DNA of 64,000 nt from an uncultured bacterium (lineage in GTDB: Bacteria > Verrucomicrobiota > Verrucomicrobiia > Limisphaerales > UBA11358): NCBI GenBank assembly GCA_963723125.1, contig CAVRPQ010000004.1:3908-67907 (forward strand), in the 5' to 3' direction. Below the pieces are notes generated by a model, which saw only the letters and a list, made by a program, of their open reading frames with translations, ran no database searches and was not told the origin of the DNA. The translations under genes and the position numbers were made by a program. This document shows positions 2,204 to 12,313 of this stretch, one piece after another (position 1 is the first letter of the stretch; each line of letters opens with the position of its first letter).

Positions 2204-2621
2204 GGTAATAATCCATTACCTGAAAACAGCCGTTTGTCAAGGGTTTTTATGGGTTTATCTGCATAAAATGACACTTCATTTTGTGTAATGTTTACGCAAA
2301 ACCAGCGGTCTTTTCCGGCAGACTCTCCAATTGCAGATGAACAATAAGAAACATCGTAGAGCGACAATGCAAGTGGTGACGGTGATACACCACATCACGG
2401 GCAATTCCGATTAAATTACCGCATGAATAATTCCATGTTCATTTTGGATTCAGCCGGCCAACGGCGTGGGGAAAGCGGGGGACGCATTTCGTGTCCCAAC
2501 GACACCTTTGACGATTCGGCGTCGGGTAAAATGACAAAACGGTAAATGATAGCAGACAGGAACTTTAAAGCTGTGTGCGAAGCACGCAGAGCCTTTGGGA
2601 AGACTGATAAGATTGCGCCCT

Positions 2622-5351
2622 ATGTTTAGCGCCGTCGCTCATAAAAATCTGGTCGATGCCGAGAGTTATTTCGACGAGCATCTGGCGCAGAACGATTACT
2701 ACGCCGCCGGTGAAATCCGTCCCGGCCAGTGGATCGGCACAGGCGCGGAACGATTGGGATTAAACCATGCCGTTACCCGCGAACAATTTCATGCGCTCTG
2801 TGAAAATCGAAATCCTGAAAGTGGCGAACGCTTGACGCAACGGCAGCAGAAAGAAGACAACCGCCGGGTGTTTTTCGATTTCACCTGCTCACCGCCCAAA
2901 TCCGTATCGGTGCTGGCGGTGACATTGGACGACCAGCGATTGGTTGAAGCTCATGAGGAATCCGCGCGCATTGCGTTCCGCGAATTGGAAACCTTCGCCG
3001 CAACCAGAGTCCGCAAGCAGGGCAATCAGCGTGACCGCACGACCGGCAATCTCGTGGCCGCAGCCTTCGTGCATAACAGCTCGCGTGAACTGGACCCGCA
3101 GTTGCACACGCATTTCACCGTCTTCAATGCCACATTTGATGACAGCGAACGGTGCTGGAAAGCCCTGCAAGCGGGTGGAATGTATGACGCCATCCGTTAC
3201 GGCACGGCGGTGTATCGGAACGAACTGGCGAAACGGGTTCAACAGATCGGCTACCGGATTCAACCAGCCAAGCATGGATTTGAAATCGAGGGCGTCGGCG
3301 ATGAGGTATTGAAACGCTTTTCCAAACGCGCGCAGCAGCGTGACCAGATGGTTCAGGAAATGGAACAAAAGTTGGGGCGAAAACTTTCAAATGATGAAAT
3401 CTCCCATGTAGTGCATCAGAGCCGGGCAAAAAAGCTCAAGGGCATCTCGACGGGCGAAGTGCGCGAACGCCAACTGGCACAATTACAGCCCGATGAATTA
3501 CAGGCACTGCAAAAACTTTCGGTCGGCGGTGCAACGCACTGGTCAACCGCACATCGCCGGACTGGAAAAACAAACCCTGAATCATGCCATCGCCCATGTG
3601 TTCGAGCGCAAATCCGTTGTCCCGGAGCATGAATTGCTGACAACTGCTTTGGCGCATCGGCAAGGTGAGGTGGATTTGGGCAATTTGAAACAGGAGGTGA
3701 AGTATTCGGCGGAACTGGTAAAGACAGAACGCGGGTTTTCGACGCAAAGAAATTTTGACGACAGAACTGGCTTTGATTCAGACGGTCAATGCGGGCTGCG
3801 ATTCAGTCGCACCATTGCATCCCGGTTATCGGCCTGCCGACTGGTTGGGCGAAGATCAATGCCGGGCGATTTATCATGTCCTGCGCACCAGCGACCGGAT
3901 TACCGGCCTGCGTGGGCTGGCAGGCACAGGCAAAACTACGGCACTGCGCGAACTGGTCGCCGCTTGCAAGGAAGGCCGCGTAGAACCGCTGTTCTGCGCG
4001 CCGACGGCGGCGGCAACGGATGTTCTCCGCAAAGAGGGATTCGAGGCGGTGACACTGCAAAGTTTGCTGCTGACGAAACCGGCGTTTTCTGCCCGTCAGT
4101 TGGTGGTGCTGGACGAAGCCGGGGCGGTCGGGATGGACGACATGCAGCGGCTGTTCGACCTGGCGCGTGATGCACGCATTGTGCTGTCGGGGGACACCGG
4201 CCAGCACGCTTCGGTCGCGCGTGGCGATGCGCTGCGGATTTTGGAGAACCATTCGGATTTTCAATCCGGCCAATTGACCCGCATCCGGCGGCAACGCAAA
4301 GCCGAGTATCGCCGGGCCGTTGAACTGGCCGCGCAGAAAAATACCAATGAAGCGTTCGCACAATTGGAACGCATGGGAGCGGTAACAGAATTTTCAAGCG
4401 ATAAATTGCATGGTGAAGCCGCGCGGTCGTATGTAAAAGCATTGAAGCAAAACCAATCCGTGCTGCTGGTCGCGCCGACATGGAATGAAATCGAGGCGGT
4501 GACGGAAAAAGTCCGCGCCGCGCTGAAAACGTCCGGTCGGCTGGCTGGTGAGGAAAAGGAGTTTCAAGTTTTTGATTCATTGTCATGGACGGAAGCGCAG
4601 AAGCGGGATGCGCGGCAATACCGTTCCGGCATGGCAATTCGGTTTCATCGGCAGAAAAGCGGGTTTTGCCAAAGATGAAACGGTTGCGGTGGTCGCCATC
4701 GAAAATGACGCCTTGAAAGTCCAACGCGCGGACGGTTCCGAAAGTATTTTCCCATTGGGTCAAGGCTTCGCCTTGTTTGATGTGGGGGAGAAACGGAATT
4801 TGAAAATGGCCGCTGGCGACAAGTTGTTGCTGCAATCGAACTGGCAGAAAAGATTCGTCAATGGCGAACTGGTCGAGGTGCGGGCGATTCAAGGTGATTC
4901 CGTGGTGCTGGCCGATGGCCGGGTGATTCCAGAGAACTATCGCACGTTCACGCACGGCTACGCCGTCACGTCGCACGCCGCCCAGGGCAAGACGGTGGAT
5001 GAAGTGTTGGTCGTCGCGTCGTCGCGTTCGCTGCCGGCGATCAATCAGCAGCAATTTTACGTCAGCATTTCGCGCGGGCGCGATGCGTGCCGCGTGTTCA
5101 CTGATGATGCCGAGATGTTGCGCTCGCACGTCACCCGTTCCAGCGCGCGGCTGGCGGCGGTGGAAGTTGTCCCGCCCACCCACCACCGAAAATTCATCCT
5201 GAATGTTTTGCAGCGCGGTCATCGCTTCCTGAAACAGTTCCGCCAGCGCCTCGGACTGCAACAGACCATTTTACCTGACAATCGCAGCCCACAAATGAAA
5301 ACACCCCGTTATGAACACCAACGAAAAGCCACTCACCGAATCGGCCTTTAG
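2622..5351 (+). pseudogene. MOBF-family conjugative relaxase-helicase (TrwC/TraI-like) disrupted by three +1 frameshifts (near 3515-3525, 3745-3752 and 4660-4668)
   Basis: Four consecutive ORFs in frames 0/1/2/0 (2595..3632, 3493..4170, 3755..4678, 4548..5351) together give a TrwC relaxase domain (AESYFDEHLAQNDYY; VHNSSRELDPQLHTHFTVFN). They continue into a RecD-like P-loop helicase (GLAGTGKTT; VVLDEAGAV; SGDTGQH) and a UvrD_C-like end (GYAVTSHAAQGKTVDEVLVV; YVSISRGRD). The shifts coincide with short homopolymer runs. ATG at 2622 matches the usual MFS.. start. Confidence 0.8.
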
Positions 5352-5694
5352 GCCGGGCCATAATCCCTGTTTTACCAGTGACATCAAAAGTGCCGCTCTG
5401 AACGTGTATGCAGACGACATGCACAATTACCTACTCCCTTATGCGCAAATTTTGTCTGCTGAAAGGATTTCCAATCCTGCGCTGGAACAGGAGCCAGATG
5501 CCCCGCCGGAAAAAATGTTGATCCGCTTTGCCCAGGCTGTTGTTGCGGTGCTGGGCAGTGGACTCGACGCTGTGGAGCGTGGCCTTCAACAATATGAATT
5601 GAAATTTGTGAAGTCGGCTCCACGACGTTTCGCCGGGTTGTTGAACACCCACATCGCCGCCGTCACCATCACTTTTACCAAGGAGAACGCATGA
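5311..5694 (+). CDS. hypothetical protein (127 aa), translationally coupled to the downstream HTH gene
   Basis: ATG-initiated ORF overlapping the relaxase 3' end. Its TGA stop overlaps the ATG of the next gene (ATGA at 5691-5694). No recognisable motif. Confidence 0.4.
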   Translation: MNTNEKPLTESAFRPGHNPCFTSDIKSAALNVYADDMHNYLLPYAQILSAERISNPALEQEPDAPPEKMLIRFAQAVVAVLGSGLDAVERGLQQYELKFVKSAPRRFAGLLNTHIAAVTITFTKENA

Positions 5695-5990
5695 ACCAAG
5701 AATCATCATTAAATCTACAGGCATTGGGAAAATATCCCGTCGTCATGACCAAGGAGAAAGTGGCCGAAGCGTTGGGCGTGGCCACGCATACCATTCCGCC
5801 ACTGGTGCGGTCGGGCCTGCTCAAGCCTCTCGGCCATCCGGGGCGTTATTGCGTGAAGCATTTTTCGCGTGACGCGCTCGCAGAGAAATTTGCCAGCCCA
5901 GAATGGCTCGATAAAGTGGCGGCGGCCATTCACCGGCACTGGCGCAACAAGAACGCGCGGAAGCGGGCGCGGCAGGCTCAAGCGGCGTGA
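5691..5990 (+). CDS. MGE-type helix-turn-helix DNA-binding protein (excisionase/AlpA-like), copy 1
   Basis: 99 aa. MTKEKVAEALGVATHTIPPLVRSGLLKPLG is HTH-like. It has a basic C-terminal tail and is paralogous to 14013..14324. Confidence 0.55.
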   Translation: MNQESSLNLQALGKYPVVMTKEKVAEALGVATHTIPPLVRSGLLKPLGHPGRYCVKHFSRDALAEKFASPEWLDKVAAAIHRHWRNKNARKRARQAQAA

Positions 5991-6084
5991 GCACGGGCGA
6001 GTCCGTTACGCAGATGCGACCGGCGGCACGGACACTGACGCGACTGGTTTTGACACGGCGCACTGGATTTTCTAGCCTCCGCGC

Positions 6085-6228
6085 ATGGTAAAAACGGTTA
6101 CTACGAATGAAACCGTTGTCGCTTCACGGGTGAAACCCTCCGCCTTCCTCGACAGTCACTACGTCAAGGTCATGCTCGACCAGATTATCGGGGAGAAAAA
6201 TTTCGTAAATGAAATTGTTTGGATTTGA
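6085..6228 (+). pseudogene. 47-codon fragment of an N6/N4 DNA methyltransferase (Mod/type IIS-like)
   Basis: My translation: MVKTVTTNETVVASRVKPSAFLDSHYVKVMLDQIIGEKNFVNEIVWI*. The ..HYhK.hLDeIhGEeNFvNEIhW.. segment is a conserved block of PF01555-type methyltransferases. All catalytic motifs are absent. Confidence 0.4.
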
Positions 6229-6255
6229 ATTGCAGCGCACATAAAAGGAAACAAA

Positions 6256-7638
6256 ATGAACACGATCAATGAACAACAGCGCAAACGGGCGATTGAAGTC
6301 ATGAATGAATATCTTTCTGCGCCTCCTGGGCCAGAAGGAAAAACTCCCGTAGAACTGAGCGAAGAACTTGATGCAAACCGAGTCAAGCTCATTGAGAAAG
6401 AATTAAAGCCACTCCTTGCCGATTACCTCGCGGGCAAGGTGATGCTTGCAGACTTCAAATCTAAAGCAGATGGAATAAACAAACGCAACGAGCTTTGGGG
6501 GTTCAAAGGAATCAAGGGCCAAATGTTCTTCAATATGGTGGTCAATGTTGCCGATGACGCAAAAGAATGTGACCAAGAACTAAAATCTGCATTGGCCGTT
6601 CCGACCAATGAACAAATCGCATCCAGCAGAATCAAAACATTCGCAAGCTACATCAAGCGGCTGGGAGAACAATGGGTTAGTGAAGGAAATACTCGATACG
6701 GTGCGCCAAAAGTGGGAAGCGTTCCTTTCTTCCTGTCTTATTTTTGGCAGATTCAGGATCGTGAAGTGTGGCCAGTTTATTACACCAACGCAGTGCAGAC
6801 GATGACCGATCTAAATATCTGGCAGCCATCAGACGACATTGCGGAGGATTATTTGGCGTTCAAGCAGATTCACGAAGTTCTGTCGAAGCTGTTCACCGAG
6901 ACAAGCAAGCGGCCTTTTGGACTTTATGATGTTGAACATGTCTTTTGGTTCAAGGGTGGCAATCCATACGACGCGGTCAAAGCAGAAGAGAAGGCGGCTG
7001 AACCTACACTGATCAAGCCTCCTATAAAACTTCCCATATCTGCCGACCAAGGCCATTTGCCCGAAAGCTACGTCCCACCGATTGTTGCCATCCTCCCAGC
7101 AATGGCCCGCCACGAAGAATGGCTGGTTGAGGCGGCGAAGCGTTCCGGCACGAGTCTTGAGAGAGCTTTTGAAAAAAACATTGATGCTGCGCTTACGATA
7201 TTAGGTTACGAAACTAAACTTTTGGGCCAAGGACAAGGACGCGTGCCAGATGGACGGGCTTTAGCTCTCGACGAGAACTATGCCATTTTGTGGGATGGGA
7301 AGGTTCGTGGAAACTCATACAGCTTGGGCACTGACGACCGGACGATCCGTGAATACATTACCACTCAAAGCCGCGAGTTGAGTCGCCGCTATCGAAATAT
7401 TTACTACATCATTGTTTCGAGCGCCTTCGCCGATGATTTTGACGACACAATTGCTTCGATCAAAATGGAAACAGAGGTAAGCGAAGTTATTTTACTCGAT
7501 GCAGAAGCGCTGGTGGCAATTGTGGAGGCAAAATTGCGTGCTCCGCTCCAGTTAACATTAGGGCCAGATGGCATCCAGCGTTTCTTTACAAAAAGTGGTG
7601 GCTTAACGGCAGCAATGGTTCGCGAGTATTTAGCTTAG
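6256..7638 (+). CDS. Protein with a C-terminal FokI-like PD-(D/E)XK cleavage domain and an uncharacterised ~300-aa N-terminal domain
   Basis: 460 aa. ERAFEKNIDAALTILGYETKLLGQGQGRVPDGRALALDENYAILWDGKVRGNSYSLGTDDRTIREYI parallels my memory of the FokI cleavage domain (FEMKVMEFF..YGYRGKHLGGSRKPDGAIY..VDTKAYSGGYNLPIGQADEMQRYV). The region is visibly AT-richer than the backbone. Confidence 0.55.
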   Translation: MNTINEQQRKRAIEVMNEYLSAPPGPEGKTPVELSEELDANRVKLIEKELKPLLADYLAGKVMLADFKSKADGINKRNELWGFKGIKGQMFFNMVVNVADDAKECDQELKSALAVPTNEQIASSRIKTFASYIKRLGEQWVSEGNTRYGAPKVGSVPFFLSYFWQIQDREVWPVYYTNAVQTMTDLNIWQPSDDIAEDYLAFKQIHEVLSKLFTETSKRPFGLYDVEHVFWFKGGNPYDAVKAEEKAAEPTLIKPPIKLPISADQGHLPESYVPPIVAILPAMARHEEWLVEAAKRSGTSLERAFEKNIDAALTILGYETKLLGQGQGRVPDGRALALDENYAILWDGKVRGNSYSLGTDDRTIREYITTQSRELSRRYRNIYYIIVSSAFADDFDDTIASIKMETEVSEVILLDAEALVAIVEAKLRAPLQLTLGPDGIQRFFTKSGGLTAAMVREYLA

Positions 7639-7653
7639 TTTACAATAGATATA

Positions 7654-8352
7654 ATGGCTGACCCAATTCCAATTTATCGCTATTTAGATTCTGATGCGGC
7701 ATTGAAAACACTTGTGGCCGGGAAGTTCAGAGTCGGGCTGTTATCCAAGTTCAATGATCCATTTGAGTGGAATCTCGGTTTTACTGGCGTGGCTACTCCG
7801 CCGGAGCAAGAATTTGCAAAGAATTACGCTAGCGAACATCATCGGTTTTTAGAGACATGGATGGGGATTTTAAGTTTCAGCAAGACAATTTCCGATCCAA
7901 CGCTCTGGTCGCTTTATGCTGATAAGCATTCAGGTGTTGCTTTTGAAGTGCAACATCCTTGGAATGACGACCATATTATAAAAATGGAATATCCACCGGA
8001 GCGTCCCGTTTTGGATTTTGTCCGACTGCGCAGTATCCATGACAAAAACGAAAGGGATAAATACCTTTTGTCACTTCTTAATGGTTTAATGAGGCAGAAA
8101 TCACCAAGTTGGTCTTTTGAGCAGGAATACAGATTGCAGATTGATCTAAATGACCAAGCGCATTGCTGCCAGTTAGCTGACGGTAGGCATCATTGGCAAA
8201 TTTATCGTGGATTGTTCAAACGGTTGATTCTTGGATTTCAATGCCCAATAGAAGAGGCAACAGCAAGAAAGTTGCTGGACATGAATGGATTTACCAGCAC
8301 GAATGTTGTGAGAGCCAAATTGTGTCAGGAGACTTATTCGGTTATTATTTAG
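7654..8352 (+). CDS. DUF2971-family protein
   Basis: 232 aa. The N-terminus IYRYLDSDAALKTLVAGKFRVGLLSKFNDPFEW matches the DUF2971 signature (YRY..l..l....l.fs....fNDPfE). It starts 16 nt after the previous stop, so the two are probably an operon. Confidence 0.7.
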   Translation: MADPIPIYRYLDSDAALKTLVAGKFRVGLLSKFNDPFEWNLGFTGVATPPEQEFAKNYASEHHRFLETWMGILSFSKTISDPTLWSLYADKHSGVAFEVQHPWNDDHIIKMEYPPERPVLDFVRLRSIHDKNERDKYLLSLLNGLMRQKSPSWSFEQEYRLQIDLNDQAHCCQLADGRHHWQIYRGLFKRLILGFQCPIEEATARKLLDMNGFTSTNVVRAKLCQETYSVII

Positions 8353-8501
8353 GTTCGCATGTTTTCCTCAACCATGACTGGCATTGCTATTTCGCCCATG
8401 CCTGTGCGTCATGGCCAAACGCCTGCGCGACGTTTGCGGTCTGCCGGAAAGCGAACCGCTCCGCGCTCCGCCCGCCCGTTTCAGAGGTCACGCTTCCCAT
8501 T

Positions 8502-8785: not shown

Positions 8786-9846
8786 TTATGCCTTGGCCAT
8801 CACTGGCTCAATGGTCTTGGACATTTCCGCGAACTTGGTGCGCATCCGTTCAAATTCGCTCAACGGCGGCAGTTCCACCTGCGCCTGCCGGGCATACGCG
8901 CGATGGATGGCTTTGCTGTTATGTCCCAGCGCCTCCTGCGCGAACCGTTCGGGATAACCCGCCTTTTTCGCGCGTTCCGCCCACGCATACCGATACGAAT
9001 GCAAGCTGACACCCTTGATGCCCAAGCCCGCGAGCGTTGGTGAAATTCCGTCGCCCGGTCGCCGGAACGAACCGAGCGCAGATACGGAAACAGCGGGCCG
9101 CTCCCCGGCAAATCCCGGAGAATTTCCGCCACTTCATCATCGAAGCGCATGATGGCAATCGAGCCGGTCTTTTTGCGCGCAAAACTGATGACGTTGTGTT
9201 CCCAATCAATGTTTTCAGCTTCGAGGCCCGCCAGATCGGACTGCGACGCGCCCAGGTGCCACGCCAGTTTATAGAACGCTTTGCGTTCGGGATTCAGTTC
9301 GCGGGTGACGATGGCCTGATGTTCCTCCCAGGTGATGGCGCGCTTGTCCTTGAACTCAACTTTCGGCCACTGCCGTTTTACGATGACCGGCCACGGCAGC
9401 CAGGTCATGTCCAGGGCGAAGTTGTGGATGCGCCGCAAATAAACATTGGTCGAAACTTTTCCGGTTTCGAGCACGCGCAAAAAGTTTTCCGGCCGCGTTT
9501 CCAAAACCGGCAGGTGACGAATCAAGTCAAACGCCTTGTCCTTGATGGCGGTCTGCCAGCGGTGCTGGGTCTCGCCTTTTTTGAGTTTGACCATTTCCTC
9601 CATGACGAACTGCCAGTTGCGGGTGGCAATCTGCGGGTCGCTGGCGGCGAGATAGGCGCGGGCGATTTGCAGGTTCACGGCGGGCTGCTGCTGCGCTTCG
9701 CCGCGCGAATGGAACAACCGCAGCGCCGTGGCGCGGTCGGTGGTGTGCAAGCTGTCCTGCTTGCCGGTCACGTCATCGTGAATGTAGTAGCGTCCGCCTT
9801 TTTTGCGGCGGTAGAGCCGGTATCGTTGTCTCATAACTGTATTCAC
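8786..9846 (-). pseudogene. Tyrosine recombinase/integrase with a frameshift near 9030-9045
   Basis: ORF 8860..9846 carries the N-terminal SAM-like and core-binding part. ORF 8786..9025, in another frame, carries the catalytic C-terminus (GVSLHSYRYAWAERA..ALGHNS..HRAY = H-x-x-R, H and Y motifs). Confidence 0.75.
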
Positions 9847-10148
9847 AGCGATGAGTTTACGACGATTGATCTCGACTCCGGCAGGGAGCAGGTGGGAGTT
9901 ACGCAGGGCAGGCCAGAGTTAAATCCTGCTGGCACTTCCGCTGGCACTCGTCTGTGGAAGTTGACCAAACCCTACAGTTCCAACTGGTTAGGTTTGGAGG
10001 CGAGGGTCGGAATCGGCCATTTATCCCCGCGTTTGCAGTTCAAATATGCCTGATTTCATTGGGAATTCAAGCATATTCTGTCACTACCCACCCATACCGT
10101 TTCTAACTCGTTTGGTGTCCGTTTTGGTGTCCGTTTGCGACTCCAGAT

Positions 10149-11714
10149 TTATCCGGTTGGGGTTTGGCTAATCACGCTGTGCAACCACTTCTTCCCGTCT
10201 TCTGTGATCTGGTAACGCTGCAAGCGACTTTGTGGTTTGTCTGGAATCGTTCGCCCAAGCCAGCCCTTGCCGATAAGCGCGTTGAGATAATTTTCGCGGA
10301 ATGTCTGTCGGTGTTTGACGCCGACAAGCGCCTGAATTTCACCGGCCTTACGCGGTTGCTCACAGAACTGGAGAATCTGCACTGCAACTTGGCCGGTGAC
10401 TTGGCCGGTGACTTGGCCGGTGACTTGGCCGGTCGCTAGACGTTTCCGTTCCATGGACTCTTTGACAAATTCAGGATGGAGCGGCAAGCGCACCAGAAAA
10501 TAAGTCCGGTCATCGTCAGACTCGAACACGGGCTGCGGAGAACCATTCACTCGCAACGCCTTCAACATTTTTGGAATTCCAGTGCCTCGACCTTCGGTGA
10601 GGCTGAGTTCTTTCAAAAATTCGCCAATGCGCCGGTTGCGATACCGCCGCGTTGCAAAGCGCCCGGATTGAAGTTCCTTGATGCTGACTGAACGATCCAG
10701 CCCCGGATAGCTGGCCACGGTGATTTCATCTGGCAGAACGCGGACTTCAATCGGCTCCCGGATTTCGTAGCTACGGTGATAAACCGCATTTACTACGGCT
10801 TCCTCCAGTGCTGCATAGGGCACATTGAAAAAACGGTCAGCTTCCGGCCGGTCGCCGTGTTTTACCACACGTTCTTCAATCACGGCGTTTTTCAAAAATG
10901 TCAGAGCGTCTTTGAGGATCACGTCCAATGGGCCAGCGAATGTCTTCTCCGTAAAAGTGTCGCCGCCTGGCCCTTCTGGAAATTGCACCACATCAATCTG
11001 CGTTTGAGGGAAAAACTTTTGTGGTGCCGAGTTGAAAAACATCAGACCGACGTTCAACGGGTGCATCGCTTCGGCGGGACCGTCGGCAATTCGCATCTGA
11101 CGGCACAACTGGGCAAAATCCATCGTGCTGGAATCGGCCAGCAAGTCGCTGCCGACTTCGCGCAGAAAATTTTGAATCAGCGAAAGCTTGAGATCGTTCA
11201 AAGAGGCACTGTGATGGATGCGGTCATCGAACGGAACCGTGGCCGCCAGGCTGACCAACTCGACCTCCTCTTCATGTTTGGCTTTGACCGTGGCTGAGCC
11301 TTTGCGAATGAAGTAAGCGAATTCGCGGTTGCCTTTTGCCAGCGACACGGGCGCTTTGTAAGGCCGGGTCTGCCCGCCGGGACACCACAGCACGAGAATG
11401 TGCTTTTGCTGGACCACATAAGGCGCAATCACCGGATGATAGTGAGGCTGTATCCGATGCCCAATTTCCAGAATCTCTTTTTGAATGGCGTCCAGTTTGC
11501 TGGCAAGCAATCCTGCCGGTGGCAAAATTGGCTGTCCCTGATTCTCCGCCACGCCGATGAGAATGTAGCCGCCGCCCAGGTTGTGAAAATCATTGGCGAA
11601 GGCGCACATCGTGTGCAGGACGGCTTCCGGGTTCCAGCCCTGCTTAAATTCCAAACGCTCCCACTCCACGGTTTGTCCGTGCAAAACGTCATCAATGTTA
11701 ATCGGCAAGTGCAT
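10149..11714 (-). CDS. Schlafen/AlbA_2 domain + HATPase_c_4-like ATPase + C-terminal wHTH protein (often annotated as RecG-like / putative transcriptional regulator)
   Basis: VEWERLEFKQGW..MCAFANDFHNLGGGYILIGV (AlbA_2), AVVNAVYHRSYEIREPIEVRVLPDEITVASYPG (ATPase_c_4-like) and a C-terminal winged-helix-like tail. The likely start is MHLPINIDD at 11714. Confidence 0.7.
   Translation of the reverse strand: MHLPINIDDVLHGQTVEWERLEFKQGWNPEAVLHTMCAFANDFHNLGGGYILIGVAENQGQPILPPAGLLASKLDAIQKEILEIGHRIQPHYHPVIAPYVVQQKHILVLWCPGGQTRPYKAPVSLAKGNREFAYFIRKGSATVKAKHEEEVELVSLAATVPFDDRIHHSASLNDLKLSLIQNFLREVGSDLLADSSTMDFAQLCRQMRIADGPAEAMHPLNVGLMFFNSAPQKFFPQTQIDVVQFPEGPGGDTFTEKTFAGPLDVILKDALTFLKNAVIEERVVKHGDRPEADRFFNVPYAALEEAVVNAVYHRSYEIREPIEVRVLPDEITVASYPGLDRSVSIKELQSGRFATRRYRNRRIGEFLKELSLTEGRGTGIPKMLKALRVNGSPQPVFESDDDRTYFLVRLPLHPEFVKESMERKRLATGQVTGQVTGQVTGQVAVQILQFCEQPRKAGEIQALVGVKHRQTFRENYLNALIGKGWLGRTIPDKPQSRLQRYQITEDGKKWLHSVISQTPTG
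10389..10433. repeat. 12-bp in-frame tandem repeat TTGGCCGGTGAC x3.75, encoding (TGQV)n
   Basis: Read directly from the sequence. It lies between the ATPase and wHTH parts of the 10149..11714 gene. Confidence 0.95.
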
Positions 11715-12313
11715 TGCAGGCCGAGCATAGGCCAAAATCGTTCCCGTGAAAATCAGATAGTTTTCCGCCCTAAACAACATCCTGAAATTGTTCGGAATTG
11801 CCGATGAGTTTTGAAGCCAGACATGCAGACTCCGAGCGTGTTTCCTAAGCGCGATCTGTTTTTGGCGAGGGGAGCGCAGTCAATGTGGAGGCGACGGGCG
11901 GCAGGGCGCACTACATTGACGGCGCGAGCGAGCCATATAATTGAAGCGCGAGGCACGCTCGGTGTGCGAATGCAAAAATCCAGCACGCTTTGCCAAAATT
12001 CCGCGATTGTTTCAAAATGGTAATCAACATAACCTCTCTGCGTTAGCAAAAAATCAAAACGACCAGAAAACATATTTAACAAAACTCATTTCGCGTAGCT
12101 TCGGCTGCTGTCCACTACGAAACTGGTAATTTCAACTTGGAAGACAGCGCTTGACGCACGCCCCGCTTGGGGCGTGCCGAAAGCGTTCTTCCAAGGGCAT
12201 ACCAGTGCCTGTAGTGGGACGTGATTAAGCACGTCCCTCTTGTTTTTAGGCACTCGTTCCCTTGGAGACAGTCAACCAGACAGGGCTGATTCGCACGCGA
12301 GCGAATTCAGCCC

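Follow-up and report, generated by a model that had tools for sequence, protein, structure and literature searches.

The subject of this report is a 64,000-nucleotide (nt) stretch of DNA from an uncultured bacterium of the Verrucomicrobiota (contig CAVRPQ010000004.1, positions 3,908 to 67,907; hereafter "the window"), in which a gene for a 460-amino-acid (aa) protein stands between a fragment of a DNA methylase and a DUF2971 gene. We conclude, with a probability of roughly 0.6, that this gene encodes a self-contained, methylase-independent, restriction-type nuclease that is Type IV-like and has DUF2971 as a facultative neighbor. The parts of this conclusion differ in strength. That the protein carries a FokI-type nuclease domain is very likely, and that it serves as a stand-alone defense nuclease with no need for a methylase is a good bet; that its action depends on DNA modification is a tentative proposal to which we give slightly less than even odds. 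A sequence-only reading of the same DNA had viewed the locus as the relic of a restriction-modification (R-M) system that lost its cognate methylase, and had offered three ways in which the host might survive: an inactive nuclease, protection in trans, or a re-purposed two-gene module with DUF2971. Those options omitted the one that we favor, namely a methylase-free nuclease that is directed against non-self, probably modified, DNA.

The 460-aa protein has no match in Pfam, NCBIfam, PADLOC or the sequences of the PDB (PADLOC 2.0 misses the nuclease), and searches of the PDB chain sequences with the protein and with a family profile gave nothing up to an expectation value (E) of 10. The nature of its C-terminal domain is evident from structure and from relatives. 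An AlphaFold 2 (AF2) model, built on a 22-sequence alignment, has a mean predicted local distance difference test score (pLDDT) of 82.6. Its top Foldseek match is FokI itself (2fok_B; E 2.3e-6, probability 1.0, 196 columns, root-mean-square deviation 3.8 Å), followed by N.BspD6I and HindIII. Further, 16 of the 22 aligned relatives match PF09254 (FokI_cleav_dom), the best at E 1.6e-7, and an hhalign comparison to the FokI cleavage domain gives E 1.8e-4 in a register that places PDG on PDG and W-D-x-K on V-D-T-K. The sequence-only reading had proposed a FokI-like cleavage domain, intact behind an unfamiliar N-terminal domain, and had named Foldseek and profile searches as its arbiters; both recover FokI, the latter by way of the relatives. 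One detail is corrected: the spacing of the motif is PDG-x13-DGK, not x14.

The residues E306, D332, D347 and K349 are invariant across the 22-sequence alignment, and we regard the assignment of the C-terminal domain as secure and the active site as intact. At least 810 homologs of the nuclease are present in a large protein collection. The best 120 are 62-93% identical to it, nearly all of them are about 460 aa long, and all have a precomputed PF09254 match, yet their sources label them only "hypothetical protein". The cleavage domain is joined by a disordered linker to the N-terminal domain (N-domain). As judged from its architecture, which lacks a GTPase, the nuclease is independent of nucleoside triphosphates.

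The genomic distribution of the family bears directly on the question of a cognate methylase. A survey of a one-genome-per-species collection yielded 74 loci, 63 of which have a complete nuclease gene; open reading frames (ORFs) within 6 kb were called and clustered, and the recurrent clusters were annotated. The bacterial carriers belong to the Verrucomicrobiota, Planctomycetota, Acidobacteriota, Chloroflexota, Armatimonadota, NC10, Zixibacteria and Cloacimonadota, along with delta-, beta-, alpha- and gammaproteobacteria and one spirochete; two archaea have partial matches. The survey thus shows a single-gene family that horizontal transfer has carried into more than 10 phyla. In the 63 complete loci, the nuclease has neither a conserved partner nor a methylase dedicated to it. 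Components of Type I systems (HsdM, HsdS, HsdR) occur within 6 kb in 16 of them, and in 8 of those 16 the nuclease lies on the same strand between hsd genes (hsdS and hsdM or hsdR); a Type ISP enzyme adjoins four loci, and a Type III-like Mod adjoins three. In about 60% of the loci, that of the window included, the 6-kb surroundings contain no member of the recurrent R-M gene clusters. When the two closest ORFs on each flank of the 63 loci (233 ORFs in all) were assigned to Pfam families, over 100 families were counted on either flank, with Type I components the most frequent (N6_Mtase 6+7, Methylase_S 9, ResIII 6+6), and a PADLOC census of the immediate neighbors agrees, with Type I S and M subunits dominating. 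Where a methylase does lie nearby, it is part of a complete system of Type I, ISP or III with a nuclease of its own; the one that adjoins the Geomonas family member (locus L021), for example, is followed by a ResIII-domain gene.

A particularly instructive setting is found in several Verrucomicrobia, where the nuclease is inserted between nuoI (Fer4) and nuoJ (Oxidored_q3) of the operon for NADH dehydrogenase (complex I). These nuo-embedded members (L002, L006, L007, L083 at 5001-6392 and L084 at 390-1781) are 71-85% identical to the window nuclease, and the end of the nuclease gene overlaps the start of nuoJ by about 30 nt. This arrangement suggests long retention in a housekeeping operon, probably with co-transcription. 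An intact FokI-type nuclease is tolerated there without a methylase, and therefore the family does not depend on an adjacent one. The nuclease is also being lost by pseudogenization in some genomes: its reading frame is split into two ORFs in four of the 63 loci (match regions at about 10001-11400 in L052, L061 and L065, and at 2677-4019 in L058).

Several observations on the spread of the family may be added. Two copies occur in one genome in at least two instances: L019 and L067 (OY776512.1), and L045 and L064 (Burkholderia ambifaria RZ2MS16). Both Desulfarculaceae copies adjoin Type ISP restriction-modification genes. Searches with tblastn found no match to the nuclease in phage genomes, and only two partial, haloarchaeal matches in plasmids. 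A Halalkalicoccus plasmid (L096; NZ_CP144463.1, 5067-5609) encodes a stand-alone 180-aa protein that is 42% identical to the FokI-like C-terminal domain only, in an island that also holds a DUF262-HNH protein, an AAA protein and a restriction endonuclease; on a Natronosalvus plasmid (L097), the N-domain heads an "AAA family ATPase".

What, then, might direct the nuclease to its target? No Pfam, NCBIfam or PADLOC family covers the N-domain. Modeled alone with AF2, it has a pLDDT of 90.4 and a predicted template-modeling score of 0.88, and it contains two invariant blocks, W81-G-F-x-G-x-x-G-Q-M-F-F-N93 and S155-x-P-F-F-x-S-Y-F-W164. A profile of the domain retrieved 570 proteins at E ≤1e-3, 103 of them at E ≤1e-30, from 1.84 billion representative proteins. 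The fusion partners of the domain, counted among the 71 N-domain proteins of at least 399 aa, are telling. FokI_cleav_dom is present in 21 by Pfam and in about 31 by the family's hidden Markov model; an AAA_5 McrB-type GTPase module is present in 19, Mrr_cat in up to eight, and GmrSD_N in four, one of these with HNH. A single protein has TIR_2 (E 1e-20), and another has a C-terminal region that is possibly membrane-spanning, as judged from reading the sequence only. In an archaeal locus (L073), an RE_LlaJI (McrC-type) gene comes after the gene for an N-domain-AAA_5 protein. The canonical Type IV families are McrBC, GmrSD and Mrr. Because the N-domain heads McrB, GmrSD and Mrr proteins, we take it to be a putative targeting module of methylase-independent restriction; the main evidence for this role is architectural, not biochemical. 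In McrB-family proteins, the N-terminal position is the site of the DNA or modification reader (PMC11090510). The Type IV reading of the window protein follows from two facts together, i.e., that the nuclease stands alone without a methylase and that its N-domain is common to Type IV families. Stand-alone nuclease fusions without a nearby methylase have been taken to imply Type IV elsewhere (PMC11037411).

A bolder version of this idea holds that the N-domain is a new modified-base reader of a widespread Type IV family with FokI-type, Mrr, GmrSD, McrBC, HNH and TIR effectors, and that it may descend from a DNA-glycosylase-like fold of the helix-hairpin-helix kind. We consider this version somewhat doubtful. 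Foldseek comparisons of the N-domain with the PDB and BFVD gave no match at E ≤0.001; the best PDB matches, none of them significant, are Qng1/DUF2419 (E 0.15), archaeal Ogg (0.23-0.5) and MutY (2.5), with template-modeling scores of at most 0.33. These three are the only recurrent structural neighbors of the domain, and its invariant W-G-F-x-G-x-x-G-Q block is placed in a helix-loop-helix. A glycosylase-like identity was not adopted, as the matches fall short of significance, and we keep it only as a lead. If the domain is glycosylase-like, its possible targets include hypermodified purines (e.g., 7-deazaguanines).

We propose the following mechanism. The N-domain would recognize foreign nucleic acid by some feature of it, the likeliest being a base modification not found in the host. 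Two bound monomers would then pair their FokI-like domains, as FokI does, and a double-strand cut would result. Host DNA would be spared through its lack of the mark, such that no methylase would be required. In one subclade of nucleases, DUF2971 travels directly downstream, and in the window the two genes form a mini defense island where the integrase lies in a putative, degrading integrative mobilizable element (IME).

A counterpart of this arrangement is found at locus L001, in a metagenome-assembled genome from the Verrucomicrobiota. There, positions 9906-12093 are 82% identical to the window cassette over 2,202 nt (blastn), and the flanks are unrelated. By segment, the nucleotide identities are 79% for the methylase remnant, 91% for the nuclease gene and 66% for the DUF2971 gene.

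The methylase remnant, or scar, was central to the view of the locus as a relic. Residues 23-46 of the 47-aa product match positions 115-138 of 302 in the PADLOC model MTase_II (PDLC03300; E 9e-8), and eight further PADLOC models for Type II/III methylases match them also. The scar is 65% identical to residues 176-198 of the Geomonas methylase, an 826-aa PF01555 (N6_N4) protein. In N6/N4 (beta-class, Type III Mod-like) methylases, its counterpart is the stretch after motif IV, and the DPPF of the Geomonas protein lies at about residue 120. The catalytic motif IV (DPPY/F) and the motif that binds S-adenosylmethionine are absent from every frame upstream of the scar in the window; the 47-aa product has no Pfam match; and the first 22 codons of its ORF have no methylase similarity. 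Thus, the assignment of the entire ORF to an N6/N4 methyltransferase block holds for codons 23-46 and fails for those before them, and the ORF is probably a fortuitous frame around the scar, not a gene.

The homology to L001 begins at 6162, inside the methylase-like codons. Locus L001 holds the same remnant at 9906-10000 in a more decayed form (…KVMLDQISSENNF…), with a stop directly upstream in the equivalent frame. Because the same remnant, further decayed, sits in L001, the scar is old, non-functional and part of the cassette, and it predates the split between the window and L001. Further, it did not arise from in-place decay of a methylase gene, since it is an internal piece, with both methylase ends gone, only 27 nt from the start of the nuclease gene. 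Given that members of the nuclease family are regularly found within R-M operons or next to them, we infer that the simplest origin of the scar is a recombination junction inside a neighboring methylase gene. It marks the present left end of the cassette.

At the other side of the nuclease gene, 15 nt away and on the same strand, is the DUF2971 gene. The identity and intactness given to it by the sequence-only reading are borne out by a PF11185 score of 26 bits (cut-off, 22), and the protein also matches PADLOC PDC-S31 (PDLC04991) at E 9e-19. Three features, namely R9, Y88 and E156-x-E158 (codons at 8119-8127), are invariant in 22 DUF2971 homologs. DUF2971 has been described as having a DarT-like ADP-ribosyltransferase (ART) fold with a tyrosine in motif II and E-x-E in motif III (PMC12522546); by inspection, Y88 and E156-x-E158 fit these ART-like motifs. 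Aristaios, a DUF2971 protein, is antiphage as a single gene in Lactococcus (PMC11381338), and PADLOC files PDC-S31 as a single-gene candidate.

Among the 74 genome loci, L001 and L003 are the only ones in which tblastn and jackhmmer located DUF2971 3' of the nuclease gene. Contig look-ups, in which the exact window nuclease protein has no record, added DUF2971 contexts for the homologs P0002 and P0011 (nucleases 90% and 83% identical to that of the window, respectively). The pair therefore occurs in five flanking contexts (the window, L001, L003, L075-80 and L081-82), always with both genes in the same orientation and 7-35 nt apart, and all five nucleases are at least 83% identical to the window nuclease. 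Around the nuclease at about 60 further loci of the family, not even jackhmmer finds DUF2971, and nucleases that are 81-85% identical to the window's lack it (the nuo clade, represented by L002/L083, and L004, L085 and L086). Conversely, DUF2971 homologs that are 86%, 60% and 49% identical to the window's have no nuclease nearby. The two genes also differ in their closest kin, which for the window nuclease are those of L001 and P0002, and for the window DUF2971 the solitary protein of L087 (86% aa identity) and those of L081 and L003. These discordant histories suggest either that DUF2971 alleles have been swapped 3' of the nuclease or that DUF2971 evolves much faster. We accordingly view DUF2971 as a candidate single-gene defense protein in its own right, facultatively linked to the nuclease. 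The two-gene module of the sequence-only reading is at best clade-specific.

Three details of the DUF2971 loci deserve mention. In L087, the lone DUF2971 gene is preceded by an ORF of 239 aa; the idea that this ORF encodes a truncated nuclease N-domain was excluded by tblastn and Pfam. In the P0002 contigs (L075-L080), the nuclease is found amid ArdC-N/MPTase anti-restriction, RadC and HEPN_AbiU2 genes, a mobile-element context. The downstream DUF2971 of P0002 is called at 175 aa, and its similarity to the window protein spans residues 5-232; its start may be damaged.

With this evidence in hand, other explanations of the locus can be weighed. That it is a decayed R-M system, with a Type IIS-like R subunit, a methylase eroded to 47 codons and a nuclease that is inactive or protected in trans, would account for a genuine methylase fragment 27 nt upstream of the nuclease, for FokI-type domains being classically Type IIS, and for the related methylase that adjoins the Geomonas family member. 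The neighborhood survey largely refutes it. In 63 complete loci there is no dedicated methylase, the nuo members have no methylase at all, and the adjacent methylases serve complete Type I, ISP and III systems. The scar is an internal 24-codon piece that was already decayed in the L001 cassette, the invariant catalytic residues and strong conservation of the family argue against an inactive nuclease, and no other homolog of the tested Type I, ISP or III R-M representatives is present in the 64-kb window. We give this explanation very little credence. The sequence-only reading had allowed that simple R-M decay would prevail if homologs always carried an intact methylase and never co-localized with DUF2971; neither holds, given the methylase-free loci and the five DUF2971 contexts. 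A guard or accessory role in Type I systems is likewise improbable, if a shade less so. PrrC, in the EcoprrI operon, is kept latent by a Type I complex until restriction is inhibited by a phage, and a latent nuclease of this sort would explain why 16 of the 63 loci are within 6 kb of Type I genes, why eight nucleases sit between hsd genes, and why Type I S and M subunits lead the census of immediate neighbors. Most loci, however, including that of the window, have no recurrent R-M genes within 6 kb; the nuo clade and the IME copy have no Type I genes; and the same N-domain is found at the head of McrB, GmrSD and Mrr proteins, which need no Type I partner.

Of the remaining alternatives, an obligate two-gene module, in which the nuclease and DUF2971 are co-transcribed and act together (e.g., as sensor and executor), is unlikely without being far-fetched. 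The short same-strand gap, the adjacency in five contexts, the movement of the pair as one cassette and the apparent swapping of DUF2971 alleles while adjacency was preserved are all in its favor. It is countered by the many loci and close nuclease relatives that lack DUF2971, by the DUF2971 homologs that occur alone, by the activity of Aristaios as a lone gene, and by the call of only 175 aa for the DUF2971 of P0002. Finally, the nuclease could be a selfish, homing-type endonuclease that cuts nuclease-free alleles and copies itself into them. Such an element would be expected to move as a single gene, with 50-90% identity across phyla, to insert precisely into conserved operons (nuo, hsd), and to occur in two copies in some genomes, as this family does. 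Its insertion sites, however, are highly diverse (more than 100 neighbor families per side), it has no intein or intron context, and its N-domain is shared with McrB, GmrSD, Mrr and TIR defense architectures; the nuo members, only 71-85% identical to the window nuclease, are read from these identities alone as vertically retained after one insertion. We regard homing as the most remote of these ideas.

Our preferred reading, a self-contained Type IV-like nuclease, has evidence to contend with as well. The window nuclease itself falls below the Pfam threshold for FokI_cleav_dom. Its N-domain matches no known reader fold (SRA, EVE/PUA, YTH, winged-helix or DUF3578) and is mildly acidic (isoelectric point, 5.4), and DNA binding and modification dependence are deduced only from the position of the domain. 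The TIR and possible membrane fusions leave room for a general infection sensor, which they fit as well as a DNA reader. One locus in four has Type I R-M genes next to it, and functional cooperation with R-M is possible. Lastly, the pairing with DUF2971 in five contexts, at gaps of 7-35 nt, could exceed what hitch-hiking would produce. All of these points weigh against the reading that we favor.

Comparison with known systems places the window protein between established classes. Its C-terminal domain is homologous to that of FokI and other Type IIS enzymes (PF09254) over the whole cleavage domain, with the preceding glutamate and the PD...D-x-K motif in alignment, and in both cases a linker tethers the cleavage domain to a separate recognition module. 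The recognition domain of FokI is composed of the winged-helix subdomains D1-D3. The all-alpha N-domain is unrelated to these, and only about 196 columns of the two proteins superpose well; no PDB chain, not even that of FokI, matches it significantly, and it is in this respect unlike known Type IIS recognition domains. Of the attributes of a Type IIS enzyme, then, the protein has the cleavage domain and D332/D347/K349, but the family has no cognate methylase, and the recognition domain is of another kind. Of the genomic attributes of Type IV systems, it has both a nuclease without a protecting methylase and a targeting domain that is common to Type IV families. The logic of a reader fused to a non-specific nuclease is that of the Type IV fusions (DpnI and winged-helix fusions, the SRA-HNH protein TagI, MspJI and VcaM4I), which are also stand-alone, rarely beside a methylase and often in defense islands, the criterion used here being the same as that in PMC11037411. 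The window protein differs from them in that its reader matches no known reader fold, its nuclease is of the FokI type, and its dependence on modification is a prediction.

Some members of the McrBC/LlaJI and GmrSD/BrxU groups have the same N-domain at their N-termini, whereas the window protein has neither a GTPase nor DUF262/DUF1524. Like PrrC/RloC-type genes, the nuclease gene sits between hsd genes on the same strand in 8 loci; unlike them, it encodes a DNA-type nuclease domain, not an anticodon nuclease, and most of its loci have no Type I genes. The window DUF2971, for its part, resembles Aristaios, PDC-S31 and DarT in its matches to PF11185 and PDC-S31 and in its retention of the tyrosine and E-x-E, but it is shorter than Aristaios (232 versus 316 aa) and, in contrast to DarT, has no adjacent DarG-like antitoxin. 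Within Pfam, NCBIfam, PADLOC and the literature, we found neither a describing paper nor a library model for the nuclease family or its N-domain; the literature on PF09254/FokI_cleav_dom and on PDC-S31 contained no description of the family, and no paper that names the N-domain was found.

The features of the locus are collected in the table. The three ORFs are where the sequence-only reading had placed them, and its description of a cassette that is AT-richer than the backbone is upheld, as is the view of it as cargo, here next to integrase and relaxase genes. The GC content is 42-51% in the 6000-8400 region and 55-62% on either side, and the cassette is flanked by a TrwC relaxase, a small HTH_17 protein and a tyrosine recombinase. 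The N-terminal part of the recombinase (ORF 8860-9846) covers positions 23-82 of the Phage_integrase profile, and its C-terminal catalytic part (a 79-aa ORF, 8786-9025) covers positions 126-169 of 172. The frame splits in the recombinase and in the helicase reflect either decay of the element or indel errors in the assembly; the nuclease and DUF2971 genes are intact. The cassette thus looks like cargo at the integrase end of a degraded (or indel-bearing) IME. A search of the cassette ends for terminal direct or inverted repeats gave only short, chance-level matches; promoter and terminator scans scored at or below the expectation from shuffled sequences; and no tRNA gene that could mark an attachment site was found. 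Next to the integrase, a gene on the minus strand (10149-11780) encodes 543 aa and combines the domains Schlafen/AlbA_2, HATPase_c_4 and Fic-like_C with a perfect (TGQV)x4 repeat near the C-terminus (about 10390-10440); it may be further defense or regulatory cargo.

Table. Features of the nuclease locus and its mobile-element surroundings (positions are those of the window).
Feature	Position	Strand	Evidence or remarks
TrwC relaxase	2595-3632		Upstream of the cassette
Relaxase-associated helicase, split over two frames	3755-4678 and 4548-5351	+	
Small HTH_17 (excisionase/AlpA-like) protein	5691-5990	+	Weak PF12728 match (E 0.0048); backbone side of the left junction
47-codon ORF	6085-6228	+	ORF list; encloses the methylase-derived piece; 47 aa
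Methylase-derived scar, 24 codons, SHYVKVMLDQIIGEKNFVNEIVW	6151-6222	+	PADLOC MTase_II (PDLC03300) match
Mobile cassette (scar, nuclease and DUF2971)	6162-8358	+	Bounded by nucleotide homology to L001
460-aa nuclease gene	6256-7638	+	N-domain, disordered linker, FokI-type cleavage domain
N-domain, aa 1-236	6256-6963	+	All-alpha, ten helices; predicted target-recognition (reader) module
Linker, aa 237-269	6964-7062	+	pLDDT <50; alignment columns variable in length and sequence
FokI-type PD-(D/E)XK cleavage domain, aa 270-460	7063-7635	+	Alpha/beta; Foldseek, PF09254 in relatives, hhalign
Catalytic codon E306	7171-7173		
Catalytic codon D332	7249-7251		
Catalytic codon D347	7294-7296		
Catalytic codon K349	7300-7302		
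DUF2971 gene	7654-8352	+	232 aa; PF11185 and PADLOC PDC-S31 matches
Tyrosine recombinase, split over two frames	8786-9846	-	Phage_integrase profile

A restriction-type nuclease that seems orphaned beside a piece of a methylase is not necessarily a toxic remnant; the neighborhood survey shows that this family never depended on a methylase. Its lodging in Type I and nuo operons informs how single defense genes disperse and come to be expressed. If the N-domain reads foreign or modified DNA, then at least 810 homologs and 570 representatives of the domain would become recognized restriction enzymes, and the catalogs of defense systems would gain a new sensor module. Further, should the domain read a particular mark, this natural fusion of a reader to a FokI-type nuclease could be used to map that mark.

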